NCBI RefSeq assembly: GCF_000743755.1
Contig: NW_014569442.1
Location: 1-32,759 of the forward strand
DNA from: Blastocystis sp. subtype 4
Taxonomy: Eukaryota
DNA: 32,759 bases
Reading direction: 5' to 3'
Positions 2,807 through 27,386 of this stretch are shown in pieces. The notes under the pieces are model-generated. The model did no database searches, was not told where the DNA came from, and saw only the letters and a list, made by a program, of their open reading frames with translations. The stretch's first letter is position 1. Each line of letters begins with the position of its first letter. A program made the position numbers and the translations under genes.

Positions 2807-4630
2807 ATGGAGAACGATATACAGAAGCAACTTCCTGCTGATGTATTCGATGAAATCACTATTGCTGAGCAGCAACATGTCTTGAGTTACTTTTTGGATG
2901 GTGATTACTCCAAAGAAGACGTTGAGTTCTTTGTGAAACAAGTAAATTTTCAGAGTTTGGTTTAGGTGTAGTGTCGAAGCTTTGATCTTATCCGAGCGCG
3001 GAATCTTTACACGAATTCAATCCTCCATAATCGGATTATATCAAGAGTGTATAGTGAGATGAAGGAATCTCCAGAAGTATTATCTTCAACATTTGTGTTA
3101 TTTTTAGACCTTTACTGAGCTAAAAGACTTATCAGATGATATACGCCAAAAGTATCGGGATACTGGACTTGGCGTTCTAGCAGATGGCAAAATTGCATTA
3201 GTTCTACTTACTGGAGGTCAAGCAAGTCGTTTGCAAATCTCTAAAGTCAAAGGAAATGCAGATTTTGGACTTCCATCCCGTTTGATTTAGGTTGTTACTT
3301 TGATTAGTAGATTCTACCTTGTTTAAACGAATCTTTTACCACATTCGACATATCCAGGATGAAGTAAAAGCGTTTGCTGGAAAAGATGTTCAACTTCCTA
3401 TCTACGTGATGACGTCAGAATTTAATCGTCAAGACGTTGAAAACAATATCCATACTTCCTTTTCCGTTGTTGTACTCCTTAATCGTACTTTTCCTTGATA
3501 ATCGTTATTATGGTCTCGATAAGAATCAAATAACCTTCTTTCATCAGGGTTCTTTCCCATGTGTCGATTCAAATGGTGACTTTGTGATGCGAGAGAAACA
3601 TCGCGTTCGAGATGATAGGATTCCTGATATGTAGATTGCTCTCTCTCCAGATGGAAGTGGAGGACTCTTTTTAGCTCTTCATCGTAATCATATAATCGAT
3701 GAATGGGTTCGAAAGGGTATTTCTCGTATCCATGTATTTGGTATCGACAATGCATGTGAATTGGTACGAATAGATTAGTATTATCATTCGTAGCCAGGTG
3801 ATCCAGTGTTCCTTGGATATTCTGTCATTCATCAAACAGATGTATGCTTGAAGTGTGTGGAAAAATGTTGTCCAGAAGAACGACTCTCTGTACTTGCTCA
3901 ATATGCAGAGCGTCCTCTTCTTGCCATTCACAGTGAGATGAACTATCGACAGATCATTCACCGAGATGAAGACGGTGAATTGGTATTTCGTTATGGATTC
4001 ATTTTTGATTCCATTTTCACTTTGGATTTCATCTCTCAACAATGTCGAGAATCGTCATTACCTCTATAGTAGATATCTAAATCACTGGTCATGTATAGTT
4101 GTCATGTAGTAAAGAAAGCTATTCCTTATTATGATTCCATTCTCAATAGAACTATTAAGCCTATCACTCCTAATGCATATAAGATGGAATACTATCTCTC
4201 TGATGTTTTCCCGAATGCAACGAACCTTAAGGCGTTGGTTGTTTCAAGAGATGAATTTGCCCCACTAAAGAATCCCACAGGAAAACCTATTGCTTCTCCA
4301 GAGAAGGTGGTTGAACATGTTACCAATCAGCATCTCCGTTTCTTGCTTCGAGCTGGAGCTATTCTCGAAGGAGTAACGGAAGAAGACACTGGTCAGGTGG
4401 AGATTTCACCTTTGGTATCAGCTCATGGTGAAGGACTGGAACCATTTTCGGGAGTTCAGGTGAAACTTCCTTGTTGTGTATTGGATGAAAGTGAAGTGGA
4501 CTTGAGAATGATCAAGAGTGAACCAATTAATGAAAGACTACATTTGTTGAATGATCGAAATGGTGACTATTATCAATACGTTCTTTTAAGAGTTTCTCTT
4601 CTCTTCCATGTTTCCTTACAAACATCATAA
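2807..4630 (+). CDS. UDP-N-acetylhexosamine pyrophosphorylase (UAP1/AGX)-like protein, divergent; 7 introns incl. one AT-AC
   Basis: Spliced product contains LLTGGQASRL..VKG, GLPS, IYVMTS, QGSFPC, PDGSGG, DPVFLG, KMEYYLSDVF, EFAPLKN and EISPLVS. Alternative start at 2768; exact 3' end uncertain. Confidence 0.85.
3446..3488 (+). other. U12-type AT-AC intron, 43 nt
   Basis: ATATCCAT...TCCTTAAT-CGTAC. Removal restores the frame (QDVEN-I-FLDNRYYG). Confidence 0.9.
4617..4624 (-). terminator. GU-rich polyadenylation element (TGTTTGTA)
   Basis: Lies exactly 4 nt downstream of the in-frame T at 4629 that follows the last GOS1 codon. Confidence 0.7.
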
Positions 4631-5558
4631 TGGAAAGCGTACCAGATACAAAAACAGATACAAAAAGCGATAAACGACGCAACAATGATACTAGAGATGA
4701 TGCTGACTACCAATCCTCACTTATCTCGGTTCTTTTTGTCTTTTACTTTTTGCATCAAATTGTTAACAAGAGGAAAACGGGTTATCATTCCTGTCATACG
4801 TCCACTGCTTATTTCCAATCGTTTCCGTTGATTGATAAGTTGGGAGTGCGTTTCTGAAGCTTGACTAAACGTGAATTTAAAGAATCGAACTCACTTCAAA
4901 TACTCATCAGCCATTATCACTGAATTGTGAGCTGCTCCTCTCTCTTTCAATAATGCTTGCATTTCTGTTTCGTCGGGTGTCATTCTAGAATCAATACTGG
5001 AGACTACTCTTACTCATGAATTGATCCAGGGTACAGAAGACGAACTCGATCCAATTTCATTTGTAGATTGTTCTATTTATTTTTCATTCCTAAGAATATT
5101 ACATCCATTCGTATGAAATCCTTCTTAAAATCTCGTAAAACAGACCGCTGTCTCTACATATCAAGTAAAATGTCCGAACACACTTCCACAATAGATTTGT
5201 ATGTTGAATTACCACTTGCATCTCCAAGACGTTGCAATTCTTCGAGAGCATTAGCATACTACAAGTAAATCAGTTCAGCTTATTTAACATTCTTCAGAAG
5301 ATTGTTAATTGTCTGTTTGATGTCGTCTCCACGATCAGCTTGTGCTTCTAACCTTTATCCCAACCGCAATCCGTTACCAATATCAGAATTCGAATGATCT
5401 ATATCTCTAATAAATGAACTGAAAACCTGGAGTTTTGTCTATTTATCTTCACCATCTAGAAGATGTACTTGAATTCCGTTTTCAAGGATACGGATTCCCG
5501 AAAGAGTCGATTCCCACTACATATCACACATTGGATGACGGATATCTACAGAGGCCAT
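4629..5558 (-). CDS. GOS1: Golgi SNAP receptor complex member 1 (Gos1/GS28-like Qb-SNARE); 9 introns; stop predicted to be made by poly(A)
   Basis: MASWESTLSGIRILENGIQTKLQVFS...RFPLVNNLMQKVKDKKNRDN followed by C-terminal TM IIVASFIAFCICFCIWYAFH. Introns are 29-33 nt GT-AG. Confidence 0.88.
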
Positions 5559-6030
5559 ATGAGAAATGAGAAAGAAAAGAGGACTGAAAATTCTGGGGAT
5601 CCCATCCAATTTCTAGTTTTCGCATCTACTTCTTCGCTGAAGCAGAATATATTATTTAGGATTCGTTGGACAAGAACTTGTTGATTTATCCCATATTCTT
5701 GAACCGTCATTCGTACTAGGCTCATTCACTTTTGATCAATGTTTATATTAGATTATAACCCACACAGGGGAGAAAGAACAAGGTATTGTTGGTTCTAGTA
5801 TCCGTATAGTGATTCTTGATTATCAAAGAGGTTCATCGTAAAACTGCTAGTTTGTGGAAAGACAATAATTGCTTTCTCAGAAGGTCATACTCGTTCTACC
5901 AGCTTCAAGGCTCTTATTCCTGGATATTACCTAATTTTTCCCCTCGTTTGCACAGTATCAGCGAATTGACGTCTAGGAGTTTGAAACCCCTTCGAGTTGA
6001 TACCGAACTACCGCCCGACTATCCCCTGCT

Positions 6031-6754
6031 ATGTTCACCTCTCCCGCCTCTTCATTCTTTCTGGACGATTGCTCCACTCAATCATTAATATGCATCCTTT
6101 CCTGCATTTTGGAAGGTGTTGTGAAGCGTCAGGATCAGGTAAAGGTTCTAGAAGGGAGTGACTCATAGTTGCATCCGCTTTCCTGCATTTCTCGTTTCAC
6201 CGCCCTTCATAAACCAGCAATAGACATTCAGGATTACATTGAACGGTGAGTGAAGGAGGGGAAAGGTGATTTTTAGTATATATACATACACTTTATGTAG
6301 TCCTGAGTGTCTTGTTCTATCTCTTGTCTATATTGATCGCTTAATTCAGAGTCAGACTGTTGTGGTGAACTCGTTGTCTATTCATCGAGTACTCATAACA
6401 AGGTTTTGGTATTGCCTTTGTCTCATTGTTAGTATTATGATTGCTGCTAAATTCTTTGATGATTCTTTCTTTAAGAACGAGTTCTATGCTCGTGTGGGTG
6501 GAATTGACACTAGTGAATTGAATATGCTCGAACAAGAATATCTCTGTTCGATTAATTTCTCACTGGTGGTGTCACCTGAGGATTATCAACAGTATCACAA
6601 CGAATTGTACAAGCATACTGTGAATGATATGTGCTCTTGCTGCTGCGGTTTAATGATTCCATTTCTGAAAGCATGTCCAGAGTCTCCTAATATCTTAATC
6701 TATGAGTATCCAAAACAGGTCATTCCAGACTCTCCTTGCAATGTTGTATATTAG
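6031..6754 (+). CDS. Cyclin, Pho80/cyclin-P(U) family; 3 introns
   Basis: KPAIDIQDYIERI, CLVLSLVYIDRL, SIHRVLIT, AAKFFDD..FKNEFYARVGGI, ELNMLE. Confidence 0.9.
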
Positions 6755-6811
6755 CTATGGTTTGCTCTAAGTATATGTACTATTGTCATGTTTATTGAAA
6801 ACATATATCAG

Positions 6812-7661
6812 CTATTTACCACAGCAACTTTTCTTTTTTGCAGGTTGCGATTCCAAAGATCTACATGAAACACACTCTTTATCCCATACACCTTATCACT
6901 AAGATTATTTTTCACTTCTACTAACTGGAAGCCACTGGGTTTATTTGTCTCCATATACTCTTTTACTAGAAGTGCTAGAAGTGAAGCAATCTAACTAACC
7001 AAACCAATCCGAGTAAAAACATCCGAAACACCAGCACCAGAAAGGGCACTTGTTTCGACATACATGAGATTCTCCTCTTTACAGAATTTATCAATATCCT
7101 ATGTTTGAGTACATTGCCAAAGAGCAACTTCTTTGGGGACACAACGATCCTGTACCATATCACACTTGTTTCCAGCAATAATAATAACTAGAGATAAAAG
7201 CACTGATTCAAGGATACTGATATTTTCGTCAGCACATTTTCGAATACTATCTAACCAATCAGCTTTAACAGCATCAAATGTGGACTAAAGATGATTAGTT
7301 TCTCTGATAAGATCATACTCTTTGTGTCAGATCGAACACAATAACAGCAGCGGCAGCACCACGATAATACAATTGATTAATGCTTCTGTAGCGTTCTATT
7401 CGTTACAACACTCACCCTAGGAGTTACCCTGTCCAGCAGTGTCCCATATATCAAATTTAACAGTGAGTTTGTCATCTACAACAAGGGTCTTTGTAAAATA
7501 GGCAACTATTCGATTCATCACAATTTCAAGACTGTACCTCCAACACTGGCAATATGATTCTTTGTAAATTTGTCATCAACAAAGCGAGATGCCAACGAAG
7601 TTTTCCCCACAGCGATATCTCCTACAATCACCATCTTCCCCTTGAAAACATAAGATGACAT
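6812..7661 (-). CDS. Rab GTPase, Rab5/Rab22-like; 7 introns
   Basis: GDIAVGKTS, VKFDIWDTAGQERYRS, YYRGAAAAVIVFD, GNKCD, ETSAL, C-terminal KKKSCCGK*. Confidence 0.92.
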
Positions 7662-7752
7662 AGTTAAATTGCTTCTACAAACAAAGATTCTTTAATAGTT
7701 CCCAATCGATTAAAAAACGGGGATTTTAGATTCCTAGCAGCACAAGCAAGTT

Positions 7753-9111
7753 TCAATCCCTTAAAGCAGGTGCTGGCCGGATGACTTCTACATGGAAAGG
7801 ACGATTACTTCTCTCGAATATGTTACACTCCTCATTTCCCATAACATCAACATAATCAAAAGTAGCAACCGATGAGTTCCTATTGCTTTGTAAAGCAGCT
7901 GCCAGTTGGCCGTAAGAACTCTCGAAGGTTACCAATAATTGATCAGATCGCTGAAGAATCAGCAAGTCCACAATCGCTCGTTGCATGTGGACTATAGCAT
8001 TTGACATAGAACCATAGTTCTTTTTAGGAGCCGAGTGACCAAGTTCAAATTCTGTTGTTGTAACCAGGGATCTTCCATATTTCCTCTTGAACAGCGAAAT
8101 CACATTTTTATTATCAGTAGAGAGGAAGATATACACTTCTGACAAAGAAAGAAACTCTTCTTGTAAGATCTTGTCAATAGCCTCATAGTATAATGGAATA
8201 TCTTCCATTGTCAAAAATTGCTTATCTGTATAATGTTCCTGCTTACCGCCGATCCGAACTTGAACCCCAATCATGAAGCGAGTAAGAAGGGTTTTCAAAT
8301 GAGACTGAATGATACCGCACAAAGGCGGACGAGGATACATTACTATTTCATAGAGAAGATTCACAACCCCTTGGAGCATGGGCTGCTGTTCTGGAGAAAG
8401 ATGATATTGTTTCCAAACATCACTGTAGTAACGATTCTGGAAGAAATTAGCTGTAGTATTAGTAAAGCAATCAATCTCCAAAGCTGCCTTGTGAGTCAAT
8501 TTGTTCAGATGGTTTCGACGAATATCGCGTCCTTGACGAAGCGTAGAGTACATAAAATAGAACTCGATCTGACTAAAAGGAATGTCAAGGAGACTGTACC
8601 GCATGTTAGGAAGTGCATCAAAGAAGTGGTTAGAGTACAATGGAAATGATTTCACTACACATAAAAAGGGAACAACAGAACCACTCTGAATGCCACGGTT
8701 AGTGGCTAAAGCAGCTATAATACTCGATACTAGTCCAATTATCACATTTCCCAAACCTGATTCTGCATTCACACTGTAGATAATCACTTGATGAGTCGAA
8801 GAAATATTCATCTGGTGTTGGTACATAGACTCGAGCATCTTATAAAAGAGAACATCTTGTTCATTAGTTTTGTTCAGTTCCCCTCGTTTCCGAATACTGG
8901 TTTGCTGTGACGAATGAAATCGGAATTTACTCCGATATATTCTGTGATAAAAGATGTCTTTGTCACTTCCAACAATTGTTTTCGATGTAAGATTGCCCGA
9001 ATAAATATCTGTGTATTGAAGGAATCCAATAAGAACGAAACAAAGGAGAATCTACTTCATGACACAAGAACACCAAGTTACTACACGGAATACAGATATC
9101 CTATTCTCCAT
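7753..9111 (-). CDS. Type II membrane GT-B glycosyltransferase, fucosyltransferase-like (GT23/GT37-type motifs)
   Basis: N-terminal TM after a 30-nt intron; GLGN, IGVQVRIG, IFLSTD, AIVDLLIL and SSYG motifs. The long ORF probably reads through in-frame 30-nt introns. Confidence 0.75.
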
Positions 9112-9144
9112 GTTCAAAACCAATCGAATCAATCAAATTGCTTG

Positions 9145-9152
9145 CACAAACA
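9145..9152 (-). terminator. GU-rich polyadenylation element (TGTTTGTG)
   Basis: ATG TA|TTTC|TGTTTGTG: 4 nt after the TA that follows the DDFM codons. Confidence 0.8.
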
Positions 9153-9156
9153 GAAA

Positions 9157-10065
9157 TACATGAAATCATCATCATAACCTGCGTAATCCTCGTCATCCAT
9201 CTGATCTTGCCAAGTATCATTTGATACCTTCAGGCTGATGGTTGTCTTGCCCTTCTTCTTGCCCTTCTTTGTTCCAATCTTCTCTTCCTTCTTTCTTTCC
9301 TCCTTCAACACGTTGCATGTTGTGGAAAGTTTTGCGAAATCATCACTGTTCAACTTGCCTCCACACTACCCATGAAATACCATATACAGTAGTACCTGAC
9401 GAAGACAGCACTGTAAGAACTCCAAAGTATTGGTTGCATTGCCAATTTCAAGCATTCTCTTGCCTAGTTTATATGCCAATTGCTGATAGTCTGTAATCTC
9501 TTTAAGGGGAATCATATTCACTCCCTTCTCGGTTTCACTGATGAATGCTACGAATGAAAGCCTAAATACACAGATACAGTCATCAGCCTTTCCACCGAAC
9601 ATCTCTTCCAGAATCTTGGCATCTGCGTTTTCCGAGATTTTCTTCAGACGCTCCTTTTCGGCAATGGGATCATCAAGAGGATGGTCCATTATATCGTCAT
9701 GCTGAACACCTTTATTCTCGTCATACTTCTTCGCCTGGACATAAAGTCATTTTAAAGGTACCTTACAGGACCCTTATCCGCAGCCTTCGCTTTCATTCGA
9801 TCCTCCACACGGATTTTCTCTTCCTCCGTCACCTTTCCTTCTCCATGACAAATAGGACACTGTAGTTAAAGAATCCGAAGAAAAGAATCGCAACAATAGG
9901 ATATCTCCACTCGTTTGTCTATGACTGCATTATTATCAAAAAGCATCGTAGCTTCTGCTTCCCAGTTGTCAGCAACATCTTGATTAGCAACTTCTGCTTC
10001 CCAGTCATCAGCGACATTATCTTCTATTTCATCAAGAAACCCAGCTCCTAGATACCCCAAGACAT
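9157..10065 (-). CDS. EIF3J: Translation initiation factor eIF3 subunit J; stop predicted to be made by poly(A)
   Basis: Acidic N-terminus MSWEDNVADDWE..DNWE, DPIAEKERLKK..ENAD..EEMFG, Lys-rich KKGKKKGK, and family C-terminus YDDDFM. Confidence 0.9.
9860..9904 (-). other. U12-type intron, 45 nt, apparent AT-AG termini
   Basis: ATATCCTA...TTCTTTAAC-TACAG. Only the AG end restores the frame (KRVE|CPICHGEGK). Confidence 0.75.
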
Positions 10066-10631
10066 GATGGATGTAGAATCGGATTGGTACAAGGCCTTTT
10101 TCTGATTGGGAAAAGGAATCACGGGAATGTGATAATAAGAACTCATTCCAAAGTGGTCGTGTATCATATTCTATGCAACAGCTCAACCTATAATACATAG
10201 TGAATGACTTCGGTTTGTCGAATCTGACAACATCAGACTTGGATTATCTTTCTTATTTGTCTATCGGCTATCCAGGGTGTATCTACATTTGCTGTATTGA
10301 AAACTGTCGAGTATAGGTCTGGTGAAATAGAGGCATATTCTCCCCTTTAGCGTCTTTGCATTTATTAATAAAAGTACCATAGATTGGGATGGTTATTCTG
10401 TAAAGAAAAAAGATTCACATCACTTGGTGTCTACTTGTTGATAGATGTTTGTATCATTAATGAACTATTAAACACCACAATAGATCTCTCCATAAATGGA
10501 ATAGCTCTTTGGAAGGAAACAAGAAATGCCAATTATCCCTCATTTATTGATTGTACGACTCTTATTGCAATTTGAATAGGATCGAACTGTACCGTTTTAT
10601 ATTCGTTCTTAGCATTTTACGCAAGAATAAA

Positions 10632-12530
10632 ATGTGCATATGGCGTTCAGTCATAAGACGATGGAAAATGTGGAGATTATACAGTGTTGTATCAATTATT
10701 CTGTTTTGTTGTCATTTCATTTCTAAGTGGATGTGGAAGTAATTTGATATGGTTATTTGTAGTTATAATAGAGTCTTTCCTCTAGGTTCATGTGTCTGCA
10801 GCTATTATCCTGGGTTTTCGAATCACGAAGGCAGTTTTATATACCAGGGAAAACTTATCACTCCCTTAAGTAATAATGGAGTGAGATTTGATAAGTTGAA
10901 GTTGAAGTTGTGGATTATAACTAGATCATTGTCACTGGTGTCAAAAACTGTATTCTTTGACATTAACTCGCGCTTCTATGTTGATTCGGATTTGCGTGTA
11001 CCATACTTTGGAACGTTGTGTAGTAAGCCGAAGGTGTTGTGTATCTGATTTCTAGAAGAAAGTAACTGTTCTGATTACTGTCGACATCCTGTGAACACTG
11101 AAATGCGAAACCAACATAATGATGCCTACCTTCACTATTATAATAAAGATCTTAAATATGTTGATGGAGAGTATCAGATTCAACAAGAGTATAGTCTTTT
11201 TGTTTTTCGAGGCTCTGTACAATTATCTGATGAAGAATCCAAGAAGTTTCAATCAGGGTCGATGGATGAGCCAACATTCATGACTCCTAGGGATATTACT
11301 CTTGTTTCTCAAACATCGTTCATTTTGGATTCATGCCTAATTCATAGAGTTGAGCGTTTTTTCTTCATTTCCAGTCTCCTTCAACGATGGAAAGGGTCAC
11401 GTTTCTGTTATTGCTTTATCACTAGTCCTATCTCTATTACTATTTTCGTCCACAAAGATGCACTCGATAATCTGATTAAGCAGATTCTTCAGGCTCATTT
11501 TCCCTTTCGATTGCTTATTACGTTGTATATTCCTCTACATCCTGACAAAGATTGTATCCAGTATCCTGCACGGAATAGTTCACTTCATTGCCGTTCGCAA
11601 TCATTCTTTCCTCTCAATCGGCTTCGCAATATTGCACTTCGAAGAGTTGCTACTACTCATTTTCTACTTGTCGATATGGATTCATGGCCGTCAGGTATAC
11701 AAGTATTAGTGTTATCAATATAGAGGGTACTTATGATGCACTTCAGTCGCTCCCGCGGGACTACATGGATTCTTCAAAATTTGCTACAATCGTTCCTTTG
11801 TTCACTTTTCATCCTTCTTACTTCAGTAAAGAACGGTTTGCATTTCGTGAAGGTATTCTCAAGTATTGTAATACTTCCTCAATGATTCATAGAGCAAAAG
11901 AGCTGCTTCCAAAAACCAAAGAAGAACTTATCAGGGAGATTAAAGAGAACCATTTTGTTCGTTGTGGTGAAGTGGCTCAGAATCATGTACAGTATTCTAG
12001 GTTATTCTTCCTTAGCAATATCTTCCTCCCGAGTGGTACAATCTAAAGAATCAAACCAAAGTATTGTATCTTCCTTGCTTTCATAGTCTGTGGTTAGAAC
12101 CATATATTATGTTACGATCTTCCTCTTCTCTTCAATTATTTGATGAAACATTTGTCAATTATGGATTTAACAAGGTACAATGGATTGAAACTCTCCGGTA
12201 CTCTGGATATGAGTTTTATGTCCTTAATGACGGGTTTCTCATGGATATGCCACATAAATCGTATGGATAATTCTTCTGGATTAGTTCAATAGATCGAAAT
12301 TTGCTAAATGGTATTATTCCATTTTTACGAGGGGTCATCTAACTACGCTGAAAGTGTATCGATCCTTCTTACATCGTTTGAGACAGCAACCGGATCGAAG
12401 TCGACAGCTACTTTGTTTTAGTGATCATGAGTATTTGTATATTCATTGTTGTGAACATCCAAACTCTTCACCTTCACTGAGACTTTGGTTAGAACCTGAG
12501 CCTTATCATCAAACTCACTTCAGTACATAG
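10632..12530 (+). CDS. GT49 (LARGE/B4GAT1-like) glycosyltransferase, multi-exon
   Basis: DITLVSQ, RWKGPIS, FPLNRLRNIA, LLVDMD (DxD), EPY, FDETFVNYGFNKVQWI. N-terminal hydrophobic segment; both ends approximate. Confidence 0.82.
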
Positions 12531-12614
12531 CATAACTCAAACTGATAGAATTGTATTTTACCAATAACCACTATGCATAACATTCATTTTAGATTAGTTT
12601 TATCCCAATACAGT

Positions 12615-15062
12615 ATGCGGGTTTCTTTAACCTGTCTTTCAACTGGATTTAAGGATAATGATGGAGAGTTCGTTTTAGAATGTGAAAACTCCAAGTGAGT
12701 GAAGAAACCAATTCCGATGTGTAGATACTTGATCAATGCACGAGATGGAACTCAAAGACTGTGTAACGAATTCTCTATCCGACTGTCAAAACTAAAGGGG
12801 ATCTTCATCACAAGGATGTCTCCCGAAACACTTGGTGGACTTCCTGGTTTCGTATCTGTTCTTTTAGTTATTTGTAGGTATGCTTCTAACGATTTATGAT
12901 ATGGGATTGAGAGAATTGAAGATTTATGGTCCTGAAGGGTTATCTGTCTATATGGATACATTACAACTATTTATCAATCGGTATTGTTTATTGTTTGTGA
13001 ATCCCATTCAGTCCTGACTACGTTATTACGGTAATTGAGATTGAAGAGGATATGGATTCAATTGAACTTGATAATGACGTTGTCATCAGACCGTTTGTAA
13101 TCCACCCAACTCCATGTAGAATCTTGGAATGTATTCAATTTTAGCGTCTCTTGCTTTCACCAGAAAAACTTCCCAGACTCCCTGTATTATCATATTGTTA
13201 CTACTGACTTTCTAGATTCCCTCAATTTGTCTTTTAGTCTTGTTCAGCGAGAAACTGCATTGTATGGAAGTGAGATTAGTTATCTCATCGATATTCCAAG
13301 GATTAAAGGAAAGTTTTGTCCAGATAAAGCGAGAGCACTGGGAATTCCAAAAGGAATTCTATTCAAAACACTCAGTATGGGAGGAGAAGTTGAGATTGGT
13401 GACAAGGTGATTACCAGTGATATGGTCATGACTCCTCCTACACGAGGTCCGTGTGCTCTAATCCTGTCAATTCACTCAGAATCGATTTTGAATCAAAGTA
13501 TGCAATCGCGATTATTTAGTACAATTGGCAAGGAGATAACACTCCAATTCATTCTTCATTCTTCACCGTTCTCCCTCCGATCTTATCCTTTATATGAGCA
13601 AATTCTATCAACATTCTCTCAATTCCTTCATTATTCTCTACCTGATGCAGAAATCAATCGAATTCAGGTTCATGAAGCCAGTTCATTGATTCACACTCGT
13701 GTATCTACACTTTTCCCATCACTTTTCCCACCCCTCATCAGTTACTCTGATCATTCATCTGTATCTTCGATTTCTATTATCGTATCTTTACAAATGTGAA
13801 ATAAGCTCAAGGAACCTCATACTTTGATAACTCTAGTTCCTCACAAGCCTTCTCAGTCTCTCACATCAGCTGCACATCTCAGTGATGATCACTCATTATC
13901 AATGACAGAAATCGGGACAAAATCGTATTTCCAACGTCTACAAGAAATAACTCCGAAAACTACCATTCCAGGATCTCTTTTGTTTCTTGGTACAGGTTCG
14001 GCACTCCCAAGCAAGTATCGAAATGGTTTGGTTATAGATCGATTATCACCAGTAGTTACAGGTATGTTACTCAATAACTCCATTCTCCTTGACTGTGGTG
14101 AAGGAACCTTGAATCAGCTCCTCCGAGTAACCTCAGAAGACGAAGTCCTTACTCGAATCCGTGTGGTTCTGATCAGTCATTCACATGCTGATCATCACTT
14201 GGGTTTGCCACTTCTGTTAACTCAGTTAGCGAGGAGAGTGACAGAAGAATCAAAGTACACAGAGAAGCGGCCAAAGAGAATAGATCTGTCTCCTTTACTC
14301 ATTGTTGGGCCACCTCGAGTACGGTTATTCCTGGAAATGTGGAGTGCATTTATTCCTTCGATTTCTTCCGTCTATACTTATCTGGATATTCCAATAACCA
14401 CGGGGATTCATGGTCATGATCATGTGGCACTTCCTTCTCTTGCACCTACTTTAATTCGTTCCGAGGGAATCTTTGCTGAGACTCAGAGAGACGGAAGTTT
14501 CATTGTAGCAATCCGTGATCAGGACCTTACCTTCAAGTTCTATCCAGTAGGAGTTGATTCGGTTGCTGATGGTTAGATTGAGCATTGTGATGATTCTGTA
14601 AGCACTTTGGTTCATACTCCTTCCTTCACTTTGATGTACTCAGGAGATGGTCGGCCCAATGAACGAGTACAAGAATATATTCCATCAGAATGGTCCATTG
14701 ATGTGTTGGTGAATGAATGCACATTCAGTGATGATCGACAAGAACAAGCCAAAACTAAAAATCACTGTACATGTAGTGAGGCATTACATGTTGGTGAGAC
14801 TGTAAAGGCAAAATATACGATTCTGACTCATTTCTCACAACGATACCCTAAGAATCTGTGTCATGATCAAGGAATGAAGGAAACTCGTCAACTTGTCTTC
14901 AATAATGATAGTAAGTGGATCTATGCTCATGATCTTATGAATATTACATTTGATGATCTGGAAAGGATCTGTTTGATTCGGGATGAATTAGAAGCATGTT
15001 TTGTTTCTGATGAAGAGGAATCAAGTATTTCTTTTAAACAATCACATATATGCAATAATTAA
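12615..15062 (+). CDS. ELAC2: tRNase Z long form (ELAC2/Trz1), multi-exon
   Basis: YLINARDGTQRLCNE, GGLPG, GKFCPDKARALGIPKG, LGTGSALPSKYRNV, LLDCGEGT, SHSHADHHLG, YSGD, LTHFSQRYPK. The true end may be 15021 (poly(A)-made stop). Confidence 0.93.
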
Positions 15063-18000
15063 ACCTTTTCCATACCTTCAACCAACAATGGGAAGCATTC
15101 ATAAAACTCATTCTTTGCTTCCATTGTTGGGAACTCCAATGTTAAGGACCGAGAGGCATGCAAAGTAACAAGAGGTTTCTCATTTCCATTTTCAATCTTT
15201 GTGAATTCACTTAATAGCAAAAATGCCACTTTACCATGGAATATAGATTTCTTTCTCAGCCATTGAATCTACGTGTCACCTCATTCTCTTTATCCTCACA
15301 GCACGACCTCCTGAACTATGGGTAATCAGCGAAACTGTAGTCTCATGAGGTTTCCCACGAGAACAATGCTTCATACACACAATACCAGCTTTCAGTTTCT
15401 CTTCAATCATAGCAGTCTTACGAATTCTTTCTTCTTCTTCACGTCGTTTACGTTCCTCTTCCTCACGCTGTTTACGAATTCTCTCTTCTTCTTCACGGCG
15501 TTGTCGTTCAGCTTCTTCTCTTGCTTTTCTCTCTTCTTCTTCCCTTGCTGCCTTAACAGCAGGATCCTCATCAGGAGTGGTTGTTGCACTTACAATACTG
15601 TTGACAGTATTTGTAATAGAACTAGTTAACGAAGCAAATAGACTTGGAGAAGCATCTTTGCGCTCATCCTTATCACGTCTAAACATATTGAATATGCTCT
15701 TTTGTTTCTTTGTCTTTCCAAGCATTGGACCTGGTGACGAGACTTGTTCCAGAGGTGAGACTTGTTCCTTCTCTTCTTCATCGAATGGATTATGTGCTTC
15801 CTCTTTGGGTTTCTCTTCAGGAGCAGCAAATGGATTGCCTGATTCTTCTTCTTCTTCTGAAGGATTGTCGAAAGGATTTGGTGAAGTTACTTTCACTTCT
15901 GGGTCGAAGGGATTACCTGCCTCTTCTTCTTCTTCTGAAGGAGCATCAAATGGATTAGAAGAAGTGACTTTCAGATCTTCCTTCGGAGTCTCCTCTTCCT
16001 TCAGAGGTTCTTCCTCAGGCTTATCTTCCTTCTCCATAACATCCTCTTTGGGTTTGTCCTCCTTCTCAGTGACTTCTTCCTTAGGTTCTTCTTTCTTCAC
16101 ACTATTTGATGTGATATTATCAGTATTGAGAAGCATGAACTGAGATGAAACATGACTTCCAGAATCATGACAACGCTTTGCATGAGCTTGTGTATTGGCT
16201 GCCGCCAATTTCTTTCCACAAATTGTACACACGAAATCAGGATCTACTGATAACAAATTCATAATGAATACTTTCATCATCACCATCTTCTTCCTTATTT
16301 AGAATACTTGATAAACTCTTTGATGCTGATTTCATGAAGGTATTTAGAGCAAAACGATGTTTAATAGGACCATGATGAAGATCAGATACTCCTTCACTAT
16401 CACTTGATTCCTCTTCTGATTTCTTTTCTTCAGGCTTCTCTTCCTTTGGCTTCTCTTCAGATTTCTCTTCCTCTTTGGGTTTCTCTTCAGGAGCAGCAAA
16501 TGGATTGCCTGATTCTTCTTCTTCTTCTTCTGAAGGATTGTCAAAGGGATTTGGTGAAGTCACTTTCACTTCTTCTGGGTCGAAGGGATTACCTGCCTCT
16601 TCTTCCTCTTCTGAAGGAGCATCAAATGGATTAGAAGAAGTGACTTTCAGATCTTCTTTAGGCTCTTCTTTGGACTCCTCCTTGGGTTTGTCTTCCTTCT
16701 CCATGGGATCCTCTTTAAGCTCTTCCTTCTCAGTGACTTCTTCCTTAGGTTCTTCCTTCTGCTTCTCGTCACTTTCCTTCACACTCTCTTCCTTCGGCTT
16801 ATCAATATCTCCTCCAATCGGAAGATAACGCACACCTCTGAAGTCCTTACCAGGGATACAAGTGATCAAATGAATGATTGAATCCGTTTCTGTCAATGAC
16901 TTACCACACACGGTACAGATATAAGCCACTACACCTAAGCATTCCTTCACATTCCTACAAGGTTCTTCTTCCTCTAGTGTCTTAGAAGCAGCTTCTTCTT
17001 TTTGCTTCCTTTCTTCTTCCTCTTTCTCAGCAGCAGCTGCCGCTGCCGCAGCTTCAGCCTCCTTGCGCTTTCTCTTTTCCTCCTTCTTTCTCTTTTCCTC
17101 TTCCTCAGCAGCGGCAGCAGCTGCAGCAGCCTCGGCTTCCTTACGTTTTCTCTTTTCCTCCTTTCTCTTGCGCCTCTCTTCTTCCTCAGCAGCTGCTGCT
17201 GCCGCTGCAGCTTCCTCTTCTTTTCGTCTCTTCTTCTCTTCCTTTCTCTTCCTTCTCTCTTCCTCCTCAGCTTCGGCAGCAGCTGCAGCTGCAGCAGCAG
17301 CAGCTTCCTCTTCCTTTCGCTTCTTCTTCTCTTCCTTTCTCTTCCTTCTTTCTTCTTCTGTTTCTTCCACAGCCTTCACTTCCTCACCAGGTACTGGTGA
17401 TGAAGCAGCTTCAGCTTCCTTGCGCTTTCGTCTCTCCTCCTTTCGCTTTCGTCGAGCTTCCTCTTCCTCCTCCTGCTTCTTCTTCTCTTCAGCTTCAGCA
17501 GCAGCAAGAGCAGCAGCTTCAGCTTCCTTGCGCTTCTTCTTCTCTTCATGACGCTTCTTCCTTTCCTCTTCTGTCTCTTCTCCTCTTGGACTCTTCATCT
17601 CAGCTTCAGCGGCTTCGGCCTTTCTCTTTCTCTTCTCTTCCTTCTTGCGACGTTTCTCTTCAGCTTCTGCTTCAGCAGCAGCTGCAGCTGCTTCTTCCTC
17701 CTTCCTTCTTCGCTTTTCCTCTTTCTTCTTACGCTTGCGCTCCTCTTCATCATCATTCGAGGATTTCTTTTCCTCTTCTTCATCAGATGAAGAATCCTGA
17801 TTCTTCTTTCCAATTGTCTTCACAGAATTCAAAAAACTTGAGACAAATTTCGATTTCCCTTTGAAAATACCTCCTTCAGGTACTTGAGAGGCATCTACAA
17901 ATTCGTATCTTGCTGTTGCAACCTGACTATCAATATACTATCCATGCATTACCTTTTTCTTTTCCTCTTCCGTAGCCGGACAAACTTTGTCATGAGACCC

Positions 18001-18107
18001 AATGTCAGATTGTGGGACATAATAACCACATGCATAGCACAGAGCAAACATATCGGAGCTACGGAAATCAATCTTCGTTACATGAATCCATACTCTGGTT
18101 GTGGCAT
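15059..18107 (-). CDS. Large multidomain protein: 3 C2HC zinc fingers, K/E/A-rich helix, 9 NPF motifs, C-terminal PH-like domain
   Basis: Five 28-35-nt GT-AG introns join the C-terminal part of ORF 17938-18540, ORFs 16237-17832 and 15276-16286, and a last exon ending ...RSLTLEFPTMEAKNEFYECFPLLVEGMEKV*. Confidence 0.78.
15796..16760 (-). repeat. Internal direct duplication, ~290-bp copies at about 15796-16097 and 16465-16760
   Basis: Near-identical DNA encoding KEDLKVTSSNPFDAPSEEEEEAGNPFDPE..VTSPNPFDNPSEEEEESGNPFAAPEEKPKEE. Confidence 0.9.
16985..17780 (-). repeat. Coding low-complexity repeat: (EEERRKRKEEKKRRKEEE + poly-Ala) units
   Basis: Repeated gcagct/ttcttc tracts; visible in the translation of ORF 16237-17832. 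Confidence 0.85.
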
Positions 18108-18382
18108 TTTGGATAATACACAAAAATAAACTCAAAGATAATCCCGTAAGATGGGGATTGAAGATACTCCCAAAAATGAATGTGTGCCGAACAAAATGGA
18201 GGGGATTTTGGGATTCACTGGAACTATTCATATACCGAATTCTTACATGATGGAGATTGTGAATAGCTTGTAAAGACTGAACATTCATGAGTGAGAGAAT
18301 TGGAGAGAATTCTTGGACAACCAATATGGATCTCTTAACAAACAACTCTCCTGAATATGAACACAAAGAGTCTACTAATCCT

Positions 18383-19502
18383 TTATTCCAACCAATTTTC
18401 ACTTCGAAACTGGTAGCCACAACGAGGACAAGTGAATTCGACAAGAAAATCAACAGCATCCTTATTAACCCAAATCTCATCATGGGTGCTAATTGGGACA
18501 TACTCCTTGATTGCAAAACGTAGCATTTGCTTATTTCCACATTTCGAACAAACCATATCTACTAACTGACGGTTGTCATTCAGTTGACTGCTATTTCTAG
18601 ATCTAATCCCTTTATCGTGATATTACGATTTCATTGACTGCATTTCGGAGTAGTATTGGCTGAAGTCTACTTCTGTGATGTCTATGATCTTCTACTTCAT
18701 AATTACACTCCTCTGATTCGACTTTTAAAAGAATGAGCTGAATAATTGCGGTATCATCACAAGAGAGAAGATTCGAATCAAGAGAGCGAACCCACTGTCT
18801 CATCCGTTCTTCCTTTGACCACGTCATTTCAATTGTACGACCTTCAGTATTTGGTTTTGATATCCACAGCTCGCCACGTTCCCCTTTTGAGAGAATTACA
18901 CTCACCATTTGCATGACAATACTCCCTAACTCTCTCGCAAAAAGAAAGGAGTCATCCGAAGAAGAATCTGCGTGGTAAAAATCAAGGACTTCTTGCTTCA
19001 TCTTCAAGGGCATGAAATCAAATCGATATTGCAAGGAACGGGTTAACATCTTTGTCATAATTGCTGCAAAGGAATCATTTTCATTCCTTTCAATACGAGG
19101 AATGGGAGGTAATGATTCTATCACTGATTCATGGGGAAAATACAAACTCATATCAATAACACTATCAGATACTGCTTTTTTCTTCTGTTCGAGATCCCAT
19201 GCCTTTGACGATTCCGAAACAACGCGAGATGATGCTTCTTTTTCTCTTTGTGAACTTTTATCAATGGTTCGAATATCATTTCCAAGAGATATCTCACATT
19301 CAGCCTTCATCTGTAAATCACTCTTCAAATCCACTTCTACCTGTTTGCAATAATCTAAATCTTTGTTGAATTGGTCCACATCAATGATTTTGGATTGACC
19401 ATAATGACCGGCATGCATCGAGCAGAGAAAGTCAAGAAGACATAGTTTCACGTCACAACACTCAATACATGCATTCTTCTTTCCACAAACAGAACATTCC
19501 AT
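18383..19502 (-). CDS. Hypothetical protein: N-terminal B-box-like zinc finger, C-terminal TFIIS-like helical region and zinc ribbon; 2 introns
   Basis: CSVCGKKNACIECCDVKLCLLDFLCSMHAGH; spliced C-terminus DMVCSKCGN...THDEIW...FTCPRCGYQFRSENWLE*. Confidence 0.65.
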
Positions 19503-19524
19503 CACCAAGAAGAAAGAATGTCAT

Positions 19525-19532
19525 AACAAACA
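19525..19532 (-). terminator. Perfect TGTTTGTT polyadenylation element
   Basis: GAA T|GAGT|TGTTTGTT at the end of the REP gene. Confidence 0.8.
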
Positions 19533-19534
19533 AC

Positions 19535-21652
19535 TCATTCAGTGAGCTCATCAAATAGAGACAGTTCCTGAGCTATTTCATCTTCCTTACTTGCTTCCTT
19601 ACTACTATGAGTCTATTCGCTATTCAAGTCCCAAAATTCATACCTGAGGTAAGAAACGATCTCCTGGACACAGCTTCTCAAACATCTCTCGAACATGTTT
19701 CATGCGATGGTCCATATACAAATAACATCCTTCTTGTCGAGTAGGGAAGTAATAATAGTTTGAAGCAGAAGGCTGACAGGATCGAGTTACCTACAGTCAT
19801 ATCCATGAGCAGAACTCACTTCAATATAGTGACAATCATACAGAACAGAAACTGGAACTGAACTCGACAATTGGCCAAGATATCTCTGAACAGCAGTATC
19901 CATAATAGAATATAAGGAATCTATTGTATTCTCATCGACTTTCTCGATTTCCATGAAAGCATGAATCAAGGACTCTTGAGGAGCAGTCATTTTGAATTCG
20001 TCGTTCAGCTATACTTCACATAAAGTAATAAAAGGTACCACAAGGAGGTAGATTGCTCGATGAGACTCGGTTGCTGGAATTACAATAATCTCTCTCAAAT
20101 CCTTTTTATCTGCTATATCTCTTTTATCATTTCCTGTGAACAGATAGATTCCATGAATCACCTTTCCATAAATCGGTCGGATTTCCGTCATCCTTTCCAT
20201 AAACGGATAATCATCGCTTGCGATCACATTCTTGCATCGAATAACTGTATGAATGCTTTCATTTGCAATTTCGATAGCAAGGACCTTTTGATCCCGATTT
20301 CGTGTGATCACTCGAATCACTTGAGTCTGGAGCATTGTGAGACCTGCATACACATTATTGATTCTACAAAAGGACTGTAGAATATCGCCACATCCATAGA
20401 TCGGATAGAGGAATGGTGTTGTTCCATAGATGTTCAATGATTTGATGAACTCCTGAACACGATGAATTCCGTCTGGAGTGAGTAATGGGACAAAGGCTAA
20501 CTATCATTATTGAGGAAGAAGAGTACAATGAGAATCGGAGAGATATGACTGATCCGAGCCAGTTAAACAGATGGAATAGCTATCTGACCAATCATCTCCA
20601 ACATGCCTACATTATCATGTCTTTAAGAATACCTGTGATCTGGAATTCTGACTTCAGAAAATCAACAAACGGAACATTGGTATATTTCTCTAGATCAATG
20701 ATCAACACAGATTTGTTCTGAGGTCTGGTTAAACTACGGCCTTGCTTCAGCTCCACATCATTCACAGCCAAAGCATCTTCTTCTGTTGATGCAATACTAT
20801 CTCCAATGAACTGAATGAACTTTGCAAGAAATCGTTTATCCTTTAGACTGATTGTCTTGCTTGCAAAGACTTCCTGACGACTACATGGGAGTTTCATCAC
20901 TTCAGCTTTGGAATCTTGTTCGATCAAGGCAGAAATACTATTCTACAACAGAATTGAAATTAGGATGGAAATACCATAGGATAAAACTGTGTATATTGGC
21001 CAAGGCCAGACTCTGCTAAAACAGAAACAACCTCACCTTGAGAGAGAATCATGCTACTATTTATATCAAAATTGTAGCGTCGATTCTGTTTTATAATACG
21101 CTCTTCTACAGATTGAAGTTCAGGAGAATCTGAATCTGATGACTCTGCTATCATCTCCCTCCAGAACGAAACAGAAGGTTTATTCCATTCATCTACGACA
21201 TTGTGAAGACATACGTCATTGGGAGAATACTGTTCAGGAGTGATTGGCTCTTCTTCAGTAACAACAAAGGTCTCCTTTTCCCAATCAATTGTACGACGAG
21301 TCACAGGTTGATTCAATAAACGAAGACACTCTTCAACAGCTATGATCACAACAAAGTCTAATATTTACGTAAGGGACTAATATCAAATGGTAGTTTACTC
21401 AGATCTTTATCCTTTGGAAAGTTTCGTAGTTCCGAATAGGAAAGAGAAGCTTGATTCGACCCATAGAAGGAATTCTATGATATGAATATCAACAATCCAT
21501 ATCTACTGTATCAATTAGTAATACACGCTTCCCAATTCGAGATAATGCACTAGGTTTCATTCTTCCTTGATTCCAAACCCCGCAAATACCGAATTCTCAA
21601 AGTTTGTTCCCAGAAGCACATAATCGTATTCTGCTTGTAACTCCTTATCCAT
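19535..21652 (-). CDS. Rab escort protein (REP/CHM-like, GDI superfamily), multi-exon
   Basis: EYDYVLLGT..NSVFAGALSRIGKRVLLIDTNSFYGS, long REP-type insert, RRYNFD, LPCSRQEVFASK..LKDKRFLAKFI, YGTTPFLYPIYGCGDILQSFCR. Confidence 0.9.
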
Positions 21653-21715
21653 CGATGATGCTTAATAATCAACTGAACTCACAGCAATCGTTCTCTATTG
21701 ATAGAGATTTTTGGA

Positions 21716-23857
21716 ATGAGATCCGTGATAACTCGGATTTGCAATCCGAAGACTTGCAATGGTTCTTCTGAAAGTGGCCTCGTTCCACCAGCCTCGATTA
21801 TTTCCAAAAAGTAAGAAACTATCTGGTTTCTGTTAGCTTTAGTGCTCATACTATGGGATATGCAGATGTTGCTGAGAATCAGAACTTGGTTGTGGCGAAT
21901 GACTCATCGTATACATCCTTGTCTTTTGAGGAGATTTCAATGTATGGACGATTGACTCACTTGGATCTCAATTGTTCGCCTTACGAAGATTGTATCAATT
22001 GCTGTTCGTTCAATGAGCTATCATCGTTAGTTGCTGTTTCAGTAGGAAATGGTTCTGTTTATCTATGGGATGTGCAAACCCATACAGATACTCAGTGTAT
22101 CAAATCAAAAGCACCAATACGTCAACTTCAGCGATTTATTCAAACCGATTCGTGGTTAGGTTGTATGAGTCAGCAGATTGTTGTGCTTGATGGTTCTCAA
22201 GATGTTGTGACTCCCTTTATTCAACGACCCTCTGTGTCTTGCTTTGGCATTTCTTCAGATAAACAGTATCAGTACTAGTGAGTGTGAACTGTAGATTGGT
22301 GGCTGTTGGGGATTCTGACCATAGTCTGCACATTTACGATATTCGGCAGCCATCACTTCCAATTCACTCGCTTTTCTTCCCTGAGTCTTGTGATCCTGTT
22401 GCTGTGACTTGGGATAATTCCAATCGTTTTGTTTGTGTGAATGGACATTCTTGTATTGCTACTGTCGATTTGGTTCAGGAGGTATGTGCGGGTAACGGAG
22501 TATCTATTCTTAATGTCCAACACAACCAGAAATACTCTCGAAATTGTATCTTTCAAGATGGATACCTCATTACAGGCAATGATGATGGTTTAATTTCAGT
22601 ACATGGACCTTCCTCTTCAACCTCTGTATCAATATGTATTCACTATGAGGTCTAATTGATATGTAGCAGAATCACCCATTATGAGTTTGCATCCTCTCTC
22701 TCTCACTCATTCTCTTGCTGTGCCTGATGCTGTTCTAGTTACGACCGATACAGAGATTGCTTTATTGTCTCTCACTCAATCATTTCCAATTGATGAGGAG
22801 TCAACTGGTGACGAACCGGCAGATGTAGTGAATTTGGGAGAGGATATGGAAGAAGAGGCTGAAGAGTGGATGCTTCAGGGAGTTCGTAACGAGTATATGC
22901 GTTGTTCTTGGGACCAATATGGAGTCTGTTGTCAACAAGTATTTGTTTGTCGAACATGTCGAGACCAATATGATCGATTGTTAGCGCGATTACATCCAGA
23001 ATGGTCGGCAACTGAGATCCAATCCATGTGTGATGTGGGAGCACTCTGTGAACAATGTGCGTATCACTGTCATGAAGCTCGAGGGCATGAAGTAGTTGAA
23101 TTAGGGATGAAGAAAAGTGTTGCTTGTGACTGTGGGAATCTATTGTTCCAAAGACTGGATCAATTGGCCCTTCTCGACCAGCCCTCTCTGTCTCGCGAAG
23201 ATATTCCTCATCTTCATGAGTGTTCGCTATGTCCTTCCAAGCCTGAACAATCCTGCAATCACTTTAACCATAATTGGCGTGATCGATGGTGCTACTGTGA
23301 CAAAGAAGAACGACTTCCAATGGTCCAATGTGTTCAGTGTTGTGATTGGTTTCATGAAGATTGTGCAAAGGAACGATATTTATTGACTCATGGGGAGGTG
23401 ATTAATTTGGAAGATGAGAAGAAAGACTTCTATTGTGAGGCCTGTGAATCGAAAATAGGAAGTCAAGTTCAGCCAATGCAAACACAGTTAGTAGGGCAGC
23501 CTTTACAGTCTCCACCAATGGTGCAACCTTCACAACTTCCACAACAGGAATCGCAACGAGACAAAGAAGAGGAAGTTGATGATAACGAAGAGAAGAAGAT
23601 GGAGAGGAAAATTCGTTCTCGGCTGAAAAAGAATGACAAAGCAGGAGCAATGAAACTCGTAAGAGAGAAAAAAAGGAGTCACTTCTAGATCATGAAATAC
23701 ATGCTACGACAAACACTCTCAGAATCAGAATCTCATCAACGTAATATTGTAGTTCAAAATGTGGAATCGTTTGTAGTTTTATAATGAATAGGATGTGATG
23801 CAAGGAGCCAAGATGTTAGAACGGATTATAAATAAGATTAAACATGATCGTGAATGA
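21716..23857 (+). CDS. WD40-repeat region fused to UBR7-like (UBR-box + PHD) module
   Basis: WD repeats (GNGSVYLWD, SLHIYDIR, LITGNDDG) spliced in frame to QQVFVCRTC..CAYHCH..GHEVVELG.K...CDCGN..NHN..CYC..MVQC..C.DWFH. Two further exons extend the CDS to TGA 23855-23857. Start is tentative. Confidence 0.78.
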
Positions 23858-23885
23858 ATCTGTTTTCACAAATAAACTACTTTCG

Positions 23886-26800
23886 ATGTACTCATGTCTC
23901 GGAACGACCTGTATTTGTGGTAATGAGGTTAGTCTCTATCGATTCCACAGGACAGGGTTGACGCTTTACACAATCCACTCGAAGTCGACGATTGTTAAAG
24001 GTTACTTCGTAATTTTCTTTTGAATTGGTATTATAATTAGTCCATTACAACAGAAGCTCTTGACACAGAGTATACTAAGAAAGATGATGGACTTCCTCAT
24101 ACTCATATCCTAAACCATTTCAGCGATGAGAGAATACCTTAATGGATCACTTGAACATCTCATTTTCACAGGGAGTCAGGAGTATCCTTATAAGGGAATT
24201 TTGGACCAAGTGGCAAATCGTTGTTTTGCGCAAGGAACAAATGCTTGGACGGATATTGATCATACAGTGTATGTAAGAGTATTGTTGTAGAATGTAGATA
24301 TTCCCTTGAGGTTGCTGGTATTGAAGGCTTCCTAAGTATTTTACCCATGTATTTGGATGTAGGAATTGGGATTTCACTTCATTCAAGCATATCCTCTTCC
24401 CTACGTTGACGAAAGAGGCATTTATCACAGAAGTTCATTCGATTAATGGAGATGGAGAAGATGAGGGAGTAGTTTACAGTGAAATGGAGTCTGTCCAGAA
24501 CACTTGTGATGAAATCATGTCTCGAAAGCTGTGCTCATTATTATATGGCAACAGTGGATATATATCCTCCTTATCGTGGATCCAAAGAGTTCTTAACGCT
24601 ACTCTTCATATTTTGGAGGTGATATTTCAAATCTACGTGACTTGACGATTGAACAGATCCGACGATATCACCGAGAATATTATCGTCCTGATAATATGTG
24701 CTTAATCGTTGGAGGTAGTTGGGAGAATGGTGATTCGATGTTACTGGAATCCTTAAAGCAGTTTGAGAATCAGATTATTCAACGTACTGTAAATCCGCTT
24801 CCACCCTACCATCGTCCTTGGATGCATGAAATGAGTTTCATTTGTGATGATTCTGCTCCTGTTACTTATGTAACGTTTCCTAGTGCTGATGAAGAGGGTA
24901 ATAATAATCATGTAAGTATTGCAGCAAGAACTGTTCCTATTACGGATTTCCAAACCTGTTCACTCCTTCAGTTATTATTGGAGTATTCGATACTATAGAA
25001 TAATTAACTGTTAGCTATTTGACAGATTCGACAAATTCTTTACTTTCCCAATATTTCGTAATTGATCAGAGAATGTGTGGAGAAGTATCCTATGATACAT
25101 ATGACAATCGCACTGCTGCTTATTGTATTCAGTTTAGTAATGTGGAGAAAGAGAGCATTGATCGCATTCGACCTGAATTTGATCGATTGATCCAACGGTA
25201 TAAGATGGTATAAGACTTCATGATAGAGAGATTTCCATGGGAATCAACATGAAGAGAATGATTCAGACCATCACGAAGAATCTGAATCGATTCAAGGAGA
25301 GTCTCGAAGAATGTGCCACAGAAGCGTTTGCAGACAATATTTTCCTTCATTTCTTGTCGTTCTTGATGATTGGACTTATTGTCAGATATAGCGAGCATCG
25401 CGGGGATCCTTCTGAATTCGCAGAACTAGAATCATCACTATCATATTCTAAGTTCCTCACCTCATTACTCGCCAATCCAGACCCTTCAATCTTTGTCAAT
25501 CTCCTTCACCAATTCTTCACTGAAGGTGGTCAAACACATCTTGTCACGGTTATTGCTACACCCTCTTCAGAAGCTGCAGAGAGGGTAGCAACAGCAGAGA
25601 AAGAACTAGTGGAATATCGTGTACAGACTCTTGGGAAGGAGGGACTCGAAGCAGCCGAAATGGCACAAGAAGCAGCACAGGAAGTGAATGATAAGAGGAT
25701 TCCAGACGAGTTAATAGAGAATGTACCAATTCCAACGGTGAATGCAGTACCATTGCACGATACATGGAGTGGATGTGTGCGAGGTGAAGTAGTAGAATGC
25801 AGTGATCCTCGTCTGTATCCCCAGCTACAGGAAATAGTGAAGGCTGCATGTCCTTATGAAGTACGAGTTTATCATACCACCACAGAATTTGCGACAATAG
25901 CATGTCTATTCCCGACGCAGTCACTCTCAATTGAAGAGAAGCGGTATGAGTTGATTGATAATTTGAACACTAGTCTCCTTCCAATTCTCTTTGCATCTAT
26001 CACAGAGTGTCCTCAGATTCTATCAAATGGAACTGTGAGGACAAGTGATGAAGTCATTGATTTGCTGTATACTCAAACTCTTTCTTGTTCTTTCCAGCTG
26101 GGTGTAAATCCAACTTCAGCATATCAACCGAATCGTTCATGTGAAGTGGCTTCCTTTCAACTTCGTGTAGAGAAGGAGAATCTGAATCAGGGATTGCAAT
26201 TGATGCATGACGTTCTTCTGTGTAGTGACCTTCACAGTGAAAGAGTGTTCTCAGCAATCTCAAAAGTCTTAAAACTATTAGAGGAACGAGTTCATAATGG
26301 AGATAATGTGGCAGAGATTCTCTTACGACGACTTGTTCTCTCAGAAGAATCGAATTATAACTGTTTTGATCAGATTCATATGCGTTGTTGGCTTCAGACG
26401 TTGAATACAGAGAATGATACACACGAATCACTACTCCAATCTCTGGAGGCTCTTCGGGTTAAACTTTGTGATGCTTCACATATTCAGTTTCTCTTCTTCT
26501 TATTGACTAATGAATAGTCTCTTCATAAGTACTGATTTCACACACACACAACTCTCAGCTGAAGTTCTTCATTCACTTACTCTTCACAAGAAGTCATTCT
26601 CTTCCATTCCAACCACCCTTCCTTTCATTCAGTCTAATATCTATCATAAGTCGATACCCACGGGGAAAGTGTATCTTTGTGGGATGAAGGATGTCACGAC
26701 TGTTTCATTCTCGTTAGTCGTTCCAGACCTGAAAACTCGTTCACTTCACAACTTGATGGTACTTCACGTTGCCAAAGAGTTGTTAGCGGGGTTCGAAGGG

Positions 26801-27328: not shown

Positions 27329-27386
27329 TACTTTGTTTTGTTTGTTTGTATTATCATTGGAATCTGACGAGTTCGTGGAATAGGAG

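Follow-up and report, generated by a model that had tools for sequence, protein, structure and literature searches.

Four short introns with U12-type splice signals interrupt three protein-coding genes in a 32,759-nucleotide (nt) stretch of the genome of Blastocystis sp. subtype 4 (ST4), namely contig NW_014569442.1 of RefSeq assembly GCF_000743755.1, the whole of which is called the window below (Table 1). They are excised from RNA exactly at the borders listed, share their donor and branch signals, and form a size class of their own. These are genuine introns, likely removed by an ordinary minor (U11/U12/U4atac/U6atac) spliceosome at its predicted size floor, and we have high confidence that their splicing depends on U12. 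The class and its size are already known for Blastocystis and have been in print since 2017; the four ST4 introns are new members of it.

RNA was compared with positions 3250-10100 and 20000-32759 of the window, that is, with 19.6 of 32.8 kb. Run X1, listed as 'RNA?', holds 76% of the sequence words of the query stretch and was taken to be RNA because its contigs lack introns and carry poly(A) ends. All four introns were absent from the spliced contigs of this run, each over exactly the predicted length, and among the equivalent placements of these gaps solely the reported borders begin with ATATCC. Over these 19.6 kb the comparison returned 57 rows with a gap or joint, and among those listed 38 correspond to GT-AG introns and four to the minor introns. 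No real match spanning the four sites was found in runs X2, X3, or X4. The contigs of X2 are unspliced and miss all four sites, and an X4 piece at 24554-24588 was rejected as a 35-base partial match whose flanks differ.

The donor is ATATCC(A/T) in all four introns, in line with the RTATCC(T) of U12-type introns and with T at +7 in three of them, and the branch sequence near each 3′ end resembles UCCUUAAC. ATATCC alone occurs in the window at background level (31 seen, 18-31 in simulated sequences). The composite of donor, branch, and acceptor matches exactly four places, which are the four introns. At least four composite matches were obtained in 0/900 Markov simulations with a strict pattern and in 5/900 with a loose one, both patterns having been designed after the four introns had been seen. 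The window has a GC content of 39.3%, and 39.6% is reported for ST4 (PMC5608401). A looser scan of the window for more minor introns gave seven extra strings, none of which fitted the tighter patterns; the one at +28344 was rejected, RNA passing through it ungapped. A GTATCCTT...CCTTAA look-alike at +29235 was also discarded, as it lies antisense to a coding exon.

Table 1. Minor introns and their host genes in the window.
Feature	Positions	Strand	Description
Intron 1	3446..3488	+	U12-type AT-AC, 43 nt, phase 1; branch motif CCTTAA (CCTTAAT), 6 nt past A
Intron 2	9860..9904	-	U12-type AT-AG, 45 nt, phase 0; branch motif CTTTAA (CTTTAAC), 6 nt past A
Intron 3	24105..24150	+	U12-type AT-AC, 46 nt, phase 1; branch motif CCTTAA (CCTTAAT), 8 nt past A
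Intron 4	24562..24602	+	U12-type AT-AC, 41 nt, phase 0; branch motif TCTTAA (TCTTAAC), 6 nt past A
Host gene 1	2807..4604	+	UDP-N-acetylglucosamine pyrophosphorylase (UAP-like, UDPGP family), 524 amino acids; 6 GT-AG introns + intron 1
Host gene 2	9157..10065	-	eIF3j-like, 246 amino acids; 4 GT-AG introns + intron 2
Host gene 3	23886..27330	+	M16 peptidase family, 1027 amino acids; 9 GT-AG introns + introns 3 and 4

Retention of any of the four introns leads to an early stop within 12-27 codons. For intron 1 the stop falls at amino acid 200, and the spliced protein is ungapped at the junction when compared with five homologues. Intron 2 has a length that is a multiple of three and causes no frameshift; its removal is needed because it contains an in-frame stop. 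On the exon that follows intron 2, the Pfam family PF08597 was found below the cut-off (E 0.0013). Intron 3 interrupts the HTLEH (HxxEH) motif of the M16 gene, HTLEH being present in 33/41 aligned rows, and the junctions of introns 3 and 4 are ungapped within three residues in 38/40 and 40/40 aligned homologues, respectively. The first two introns of host gene 1 were placed by frame and by the public intron table, without RNA. A preliminary description, made from the letters of the window, had placed the four introns with their ATATCC(A/T) donors and their CCTTAA, CTTTAA, or TCTTAA motifs, had proposed that they are spliced U12-type introns, each needed for the frame, and had named the use of nearby GT-AG sites as the contrary outcome. 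The sequence, the junctions in X1, and the stops on retention bear this out, and no nearby GT-AG use was seen, the majority RNA form using the AT-AC and AT-AG junctions.

The public ST4 gene models put GT-AG introns in place of introns 1 and 2, and GT-AG or GC-AG alternatives that keep the frame are present for introns 2 and 3, as could be expected if the motifs had arisen by chance in broken genes, or through assembly errors, and nearby GT-AG sites were used instead. However, the RNA contigs use the AT-AC and AT-AG junctions and run ungapped through an annotated 28-nt intron, which refutes this explanation for the majority RNA form, and the window is matched at 100% identity by two metagenome contigs, one of them crossing introns 3 and 4. 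We therefore regard it as practically dismissed. The metagenome scan gave just these two identical ST4 contigs and one distant match, and no DNA of other subtypes.

The errors of the public models can be followed in S11 Data of PMC5608401, where one intron of the window is identical to KNB44290_1 of the ST4 sheet; of the 38 introns with RNA support, 22 match ST4 rows KNB44277-97 by eye. KNB44277_4 places a false intron of 28 nt at 3406-3433, through which RNA passes ungapped, KNB44282_1 renders intron 2 as a false GT-AG intron of 51 nt, and the M16 gene is split into KNB44290 and KNB44291, as judged by the intron rows alone. All three host genes are thus wrongly modelled: in one model a false intron removes a conserved motif, another lacks two residues, and one gene is split in two. 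Introns starting with ATATCC are absent from the ST4 sheet (0 of 24,095 rows) and from the part of the subtype 7 (ST7) sheet that was covered (16,520 rows); all 336 such rows are in the sheet of subtype 1 (ST1). The prediction that GT-AG gene finders would miss these introns was therefore correct, and we did not find in print, in the literature searched, that the ST4 table lacks ATATCC introns and that the three host genes are mis-modelled. The scan pattern proposed with that prediction, ATATCC...AC, would for its part miscall intron 2, which ends in AG. Further candidates are hidden in the ST4 table, since, of 30 ST4 rows that contain ATATCCTT internally, about 10 resemble, by eye and not from RNA, minor introns inside GT-AG borders; at the ST1 rate, the number of ST4 introns affected would be a few hundred. 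An RNA-supported GT-AG intron in the 5′ untranslated region of a cyclin gene (5946-5976, +) is also missing from its public model.

In ST1, 346 U12 introns in 319 genes are reported among 35,412 introns, or about 1% (PMC5608401). The preliminary estimate had been of about 4 in about 100 introns for the window, and its total, at least, is plausible: the public models annotate 73 introns there, and we estimate about 90-100. The 4% rate is not established. At the ST1 rate, the probability of at least four in 95 is 0.014, for a window that was chosen for these introns and has two of the four in one gene.

The position of intron 4 appears to be common to divergent relatives. Five protein clusters that are 71-77% identical to the exon before intron 4, and that have been called straight through the DNA, form three lineages by pairwise identity and likely represent other Blastocystis subtypes. 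Their inserts read I-S at the junction, and each can be back-translated to an intron that follows ATATCC...YYTTNAY...AC, is 38, 39, or 42 nt long, and has 6-7 nt past the A (8 also being possible in one cluster). Twelve of the 14 distinct insert peptides pass this pattern, one of the others being truncated and one failing on an exon variant, whereas shuffled peptides pass it 2-34 times in 5000. The 3′ signal alone is present in 7/7 close relatives, two of them from the five-cluster set, in about 2% of background sequence windows, and in 0/29 distant full-length homologues. In the relatives the splice signals are thus kept while the intron interiors have diverged, as read from protein rather than DNA at this one intron. 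No match to the back-translated inserts was present among the ST1 table rows listed (14 of 15, 1 of 1, and 14 of 27), which gave no link between these relatives and ST1, and a protein search with the exon after intron 4 gave no match. A shared position of this intron was not found in print in the literature searched.

Such persistence fits badly with the loss of 11/12 minor introns reported for ST7 (PMC10639083). The authors of this figure considered unannotated introns unlikely in good alignments (PMC10639083). Introns that are in frame and read as coding could nevertheless be scored as lost, so the annotation may account for the rapid loss described in ST7. Blastocystis has been cited for fast minor-intron turnover and possible recent gain; because the position of intron 4 seems to be kept across divergent lineages, and because AT-starting introns are absent from the ST4 and ST7 tables, we suggest that turnover be re-tested at the DNA level.

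The lengths of the two intron classes in the window do not overlap, the four minor introns measuring 41-46 nt and the 38 listed GT-AG introns 28-33 nt, as the preliminary description had anticipated in assigning the former to a size class of their own. Its 5-7 nt between the 7-mer branch motif and the 3′ site likewise agree with the 6, 6, 8, and 6 nt that we count past the branch A in introns 1 to 4, and its remark that short minor introns had been reported for Blastocystis was accurate (PMC5608401, PMC10639083). These distances fall short of the branch-to-acceptor optimum of 11-13 nt given in PMC3584512 and PMC6717393, the counting base being unstated there, an optimum that is typical of U12-type introns and not defining for them. 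In the 38 major introns, T is found at -10 in 31/38, A at -8 in 27/38, and both, as a branch-like T-N-A, in 24/38. Their donor is weak (GTA in 24/38) and 34/38 end in TAG, so that they seem to be defined by length and a fixed branch position. The putative branch A stands at position 35-39 in the minor introns and at 23-26 in the major ones, and the extra length of the former, roughly 13 bases, sits between donor and branch. In a Rab GTPase gene, the putative GT-AG intron at 7188-7217 (-), 30 nt long, starts with GTATCCTT, a perfect minor donor; it was rejected as a minor intron by its size and could be a chance likeness or a converted minor intron.

Sixty of the 336 ATATCC rows of the ST1 sheet were read by eye for their geometry. 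Lengths were 37-47 nt in 57/60, and 6 nt followed the A in 36/60, 7 nt in 22/60, and 8-9 nt in 2/60. The ends were AC in 39/60, AG in 19/60, AT in 1/60, and AA in 1/60. The first A of the branch motif was often replaced by C, G, or T, and for this reason we take the second (last) A to be the branch point. All 25 ST1 introns starting with GTATCCTT were 29-33 nt long, leaving no GT-AG minor size class among them. ST1 minor introns thus look AT-only, with about one third AT-AG, which was not found in print in the literature searched. A later survey of Blastocystis reported 253 minor introns, 77% AT-AC and 49% in phase 0, with a mean just under 42 nt, the shortest surveyed (PMC10639083). B. hominis minor introns are also listed in PMC11347168, which reports no minor components found outside the gyrista clade. 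The passages of PMC12129017 and of its preprint that discuss 30-nt introns make no mention of minor introns. Branch-to-acceptor spacing in Blastocystis was not found in the text of the literature searched; the logos in Figure 1 of PMC5608401 may show it.

AT-AC introns also exist in the major class, and the weak T-N-A branch signal of the major introns can be accommodated within the U12 motif at almost the same position, so the four introns might be of U2-type, cut by the major spliceosome, with their U12-like signals as relics; minor machinery has, moreover, been published for ST1 and ST7 only, and that of ST4 is putative. Introns of that type, however, have a U2-like donor apart from the first base and would be expected in the major size class, whereas the four introns start with ATATCC and lie outside the tight range of 28-33 nt, and both signals are kept in divergent relatives while the interiors change. 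We consider removal as U2-type introns very unlikely. With a Blastocystis host and a size class of about 37-47 nt set apart from 30-nt major introns, the four correspond instead to the short minor introns of this organism.

Whether the minor spliceosome itself has been specially remodelled or reduced in Blastocystis, the short branch-to-acceptor distance being minor-specific, is a separate question. The preliminary description had argued for such a compact, divergent machine with altered geometry. The 6-8 nt against an optimum of 11-13 nt, the AT-AG ends of 19/60 ST1 rows, compared with 11 of roughly 670 introns in human (PMC1557818), and the absence of a 37-47 nt GT-AG class among the 25 ST1 introns starting with GTATCCTT would speak for it. 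All four minor small nuclear RNAs (snRNAs) and seven U11/U12 proteins are nevertheless present in ST1, and likewise in ST7 (PMC5608401), and Giardia and Trichomonas have major-type introns with a fused branch and 3′ site, 7 nt past the A (PMC6679479). Since the major introns of the window have the same spacing, the short 3′ arm is not minor-specific. The proposal was not supported by this comparison, and we hold a remodelled machine to be unlikely.

With an ordinary minor spliceosome, and from established splicing chemistry, ATATCC would be read by U11 and later by U6atac, and YYTTNAY by U12, with the last A as the branch point. The anatomy of the introns suggests that the acceptor would be whichever AC or AG comes first from 5-6 nt past the branch A onwards, distance and not the dinucleotide being decisive. 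In intron 2, an AC 4 nt past the A is passed over, which if used would shift the frame, and the AG at 6 nt is used; in intron 3, the AC at 8 nt is used and an in-frame AC at 14 nt is not. We propose that the short 3′ spacing comes from parts common to both spliceosomes, because the major introns have it as well. The longer span from donor to branch likely reflects the need for the U11/U12 di-snRNP (the paired small nuclear ribonucleoprotein) to hold both sites at once, on a steric account.

Several points weigh against this interpretation. The excision data come from contigs of one RNA run and give the majority form, to which minor alternative junctions and retention are invisible. The 5′ signal ends at ATATCC(A/T) in 4/4 introns, shorter than the human consensus, and AT-AG ends are described in the literature as disfavoured for U12 splicing. 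The distance rule is drawn from two introns of the window, the branch A is putative in both classes, and the T-10/A-8 pair is absent in 14/38 major introns. An Rfam search of the window returned tRNA only and no snRNA, and neither a minor snRNA nor a minor protein was found within it.

More broadly, Blastocystis could have an AT-only minor system with no GT-AG subtype, about one third AT-AG introns, an acceptor placed 6-7 nt past the branch A by the ruler that also serves the 30-nt major introns, and a donor-to-branch span with a hard minimum of about 31-39 nt, which would expose the footprint of the U11/U12 di-snRNP; its minor introns would be old and stable across subtypes, and the published turnover (11/12 lost in ST7) an artefact of GT-AG-only annotation. 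We put this forward tentatively, leaning slightly against its holding in full. A genome in which both intron classes have reached their size floors offers a natural ruler of the RNA needed by each spliceosome.

Other features of the window were also recorded. The stop codon is made by poly(A) addition at three of four poly(A) sites, 4604 (+, host gene 1), 9157 (-, host gene 2), and 28867 (+), with a TGTTTGTT-like motif downstream of each; in the cyclin gene with its poly(A) site at 6784, the stop codon is encoded in the genome. Two related cyclin genes, 6031-6663 (+) and about 31350-32100 (+), cross-match in RNA contigs. One RNA contig over 20039-23760 covers a minus-strand gene and a plus-strand coding sequence and partly skips 21475-21842, which indicates that transcripts converge or overlap in this very compact part of the window. 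A long repetitive protein rich in lysine, glutamate, and alanine is encoded at 15276-18050 (-); an internal block of it is duplicated and contains NPF motifs along with short CxxC segments that resemble zinc fingers. A tRNA-Leu(AAG) at 30285-30368 (-) lies between two protein genes and adjoins an Hsp20-like gene (30434-30940, -). The genes at 7753-9051 (-) and 10660-12420 (+) we take to be glycosyltransferase-like. Stops completed by poly(A) with a downstream motif are a described Blastocystis trait (PMC5608401).

Among known systems, the U12 introns of ST1 and ST7 (Gentekaki et al. 2017, PMC5608401; Larue and Roy 2023, PMC10639083) are closest to those of ST4. They have an ATATCC donor and a YYTTNAY branch, mostly measure 37-47 nt where the major introns measure 30 nt, leave 6-7 nt after the branch A, are of the AT-AC or AT-AG kind, and are often in phase 0. 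The four ST4 introns are slightly longer than those of ST1 (41-46 nt versus a median of 39) and all have TTAA where ST1 often has TTCA; the accounts of minor introns in these two papers describe none for ST4, whose table lists none. Animal and plant U12 introns (PMC3584512, PMC2846911, PMC1557818) share the RTATCC donor, the UCCUUAAC-like branch, the lack of a pyrimidine tract, an acceptor set by distance, and clustering in one gene. Those of Blastocystis are much shorter, with 6-8 rather than 11-13 nt to the acceptor, AT-AG is common and not rare, and the GT-AG subtype is apparently absent instead of dominant. Finally, the introns of Giardia, Trichomonas, and Spironucleus with a fused branch and 3′ site likewise end at a fixed distance, about 7 nt after the branch A (PMC6679479), but these are major-type introns in intron-poor genomes, whereas the genome of Blastocystis is intron-rich and shows such a distance in both classes.

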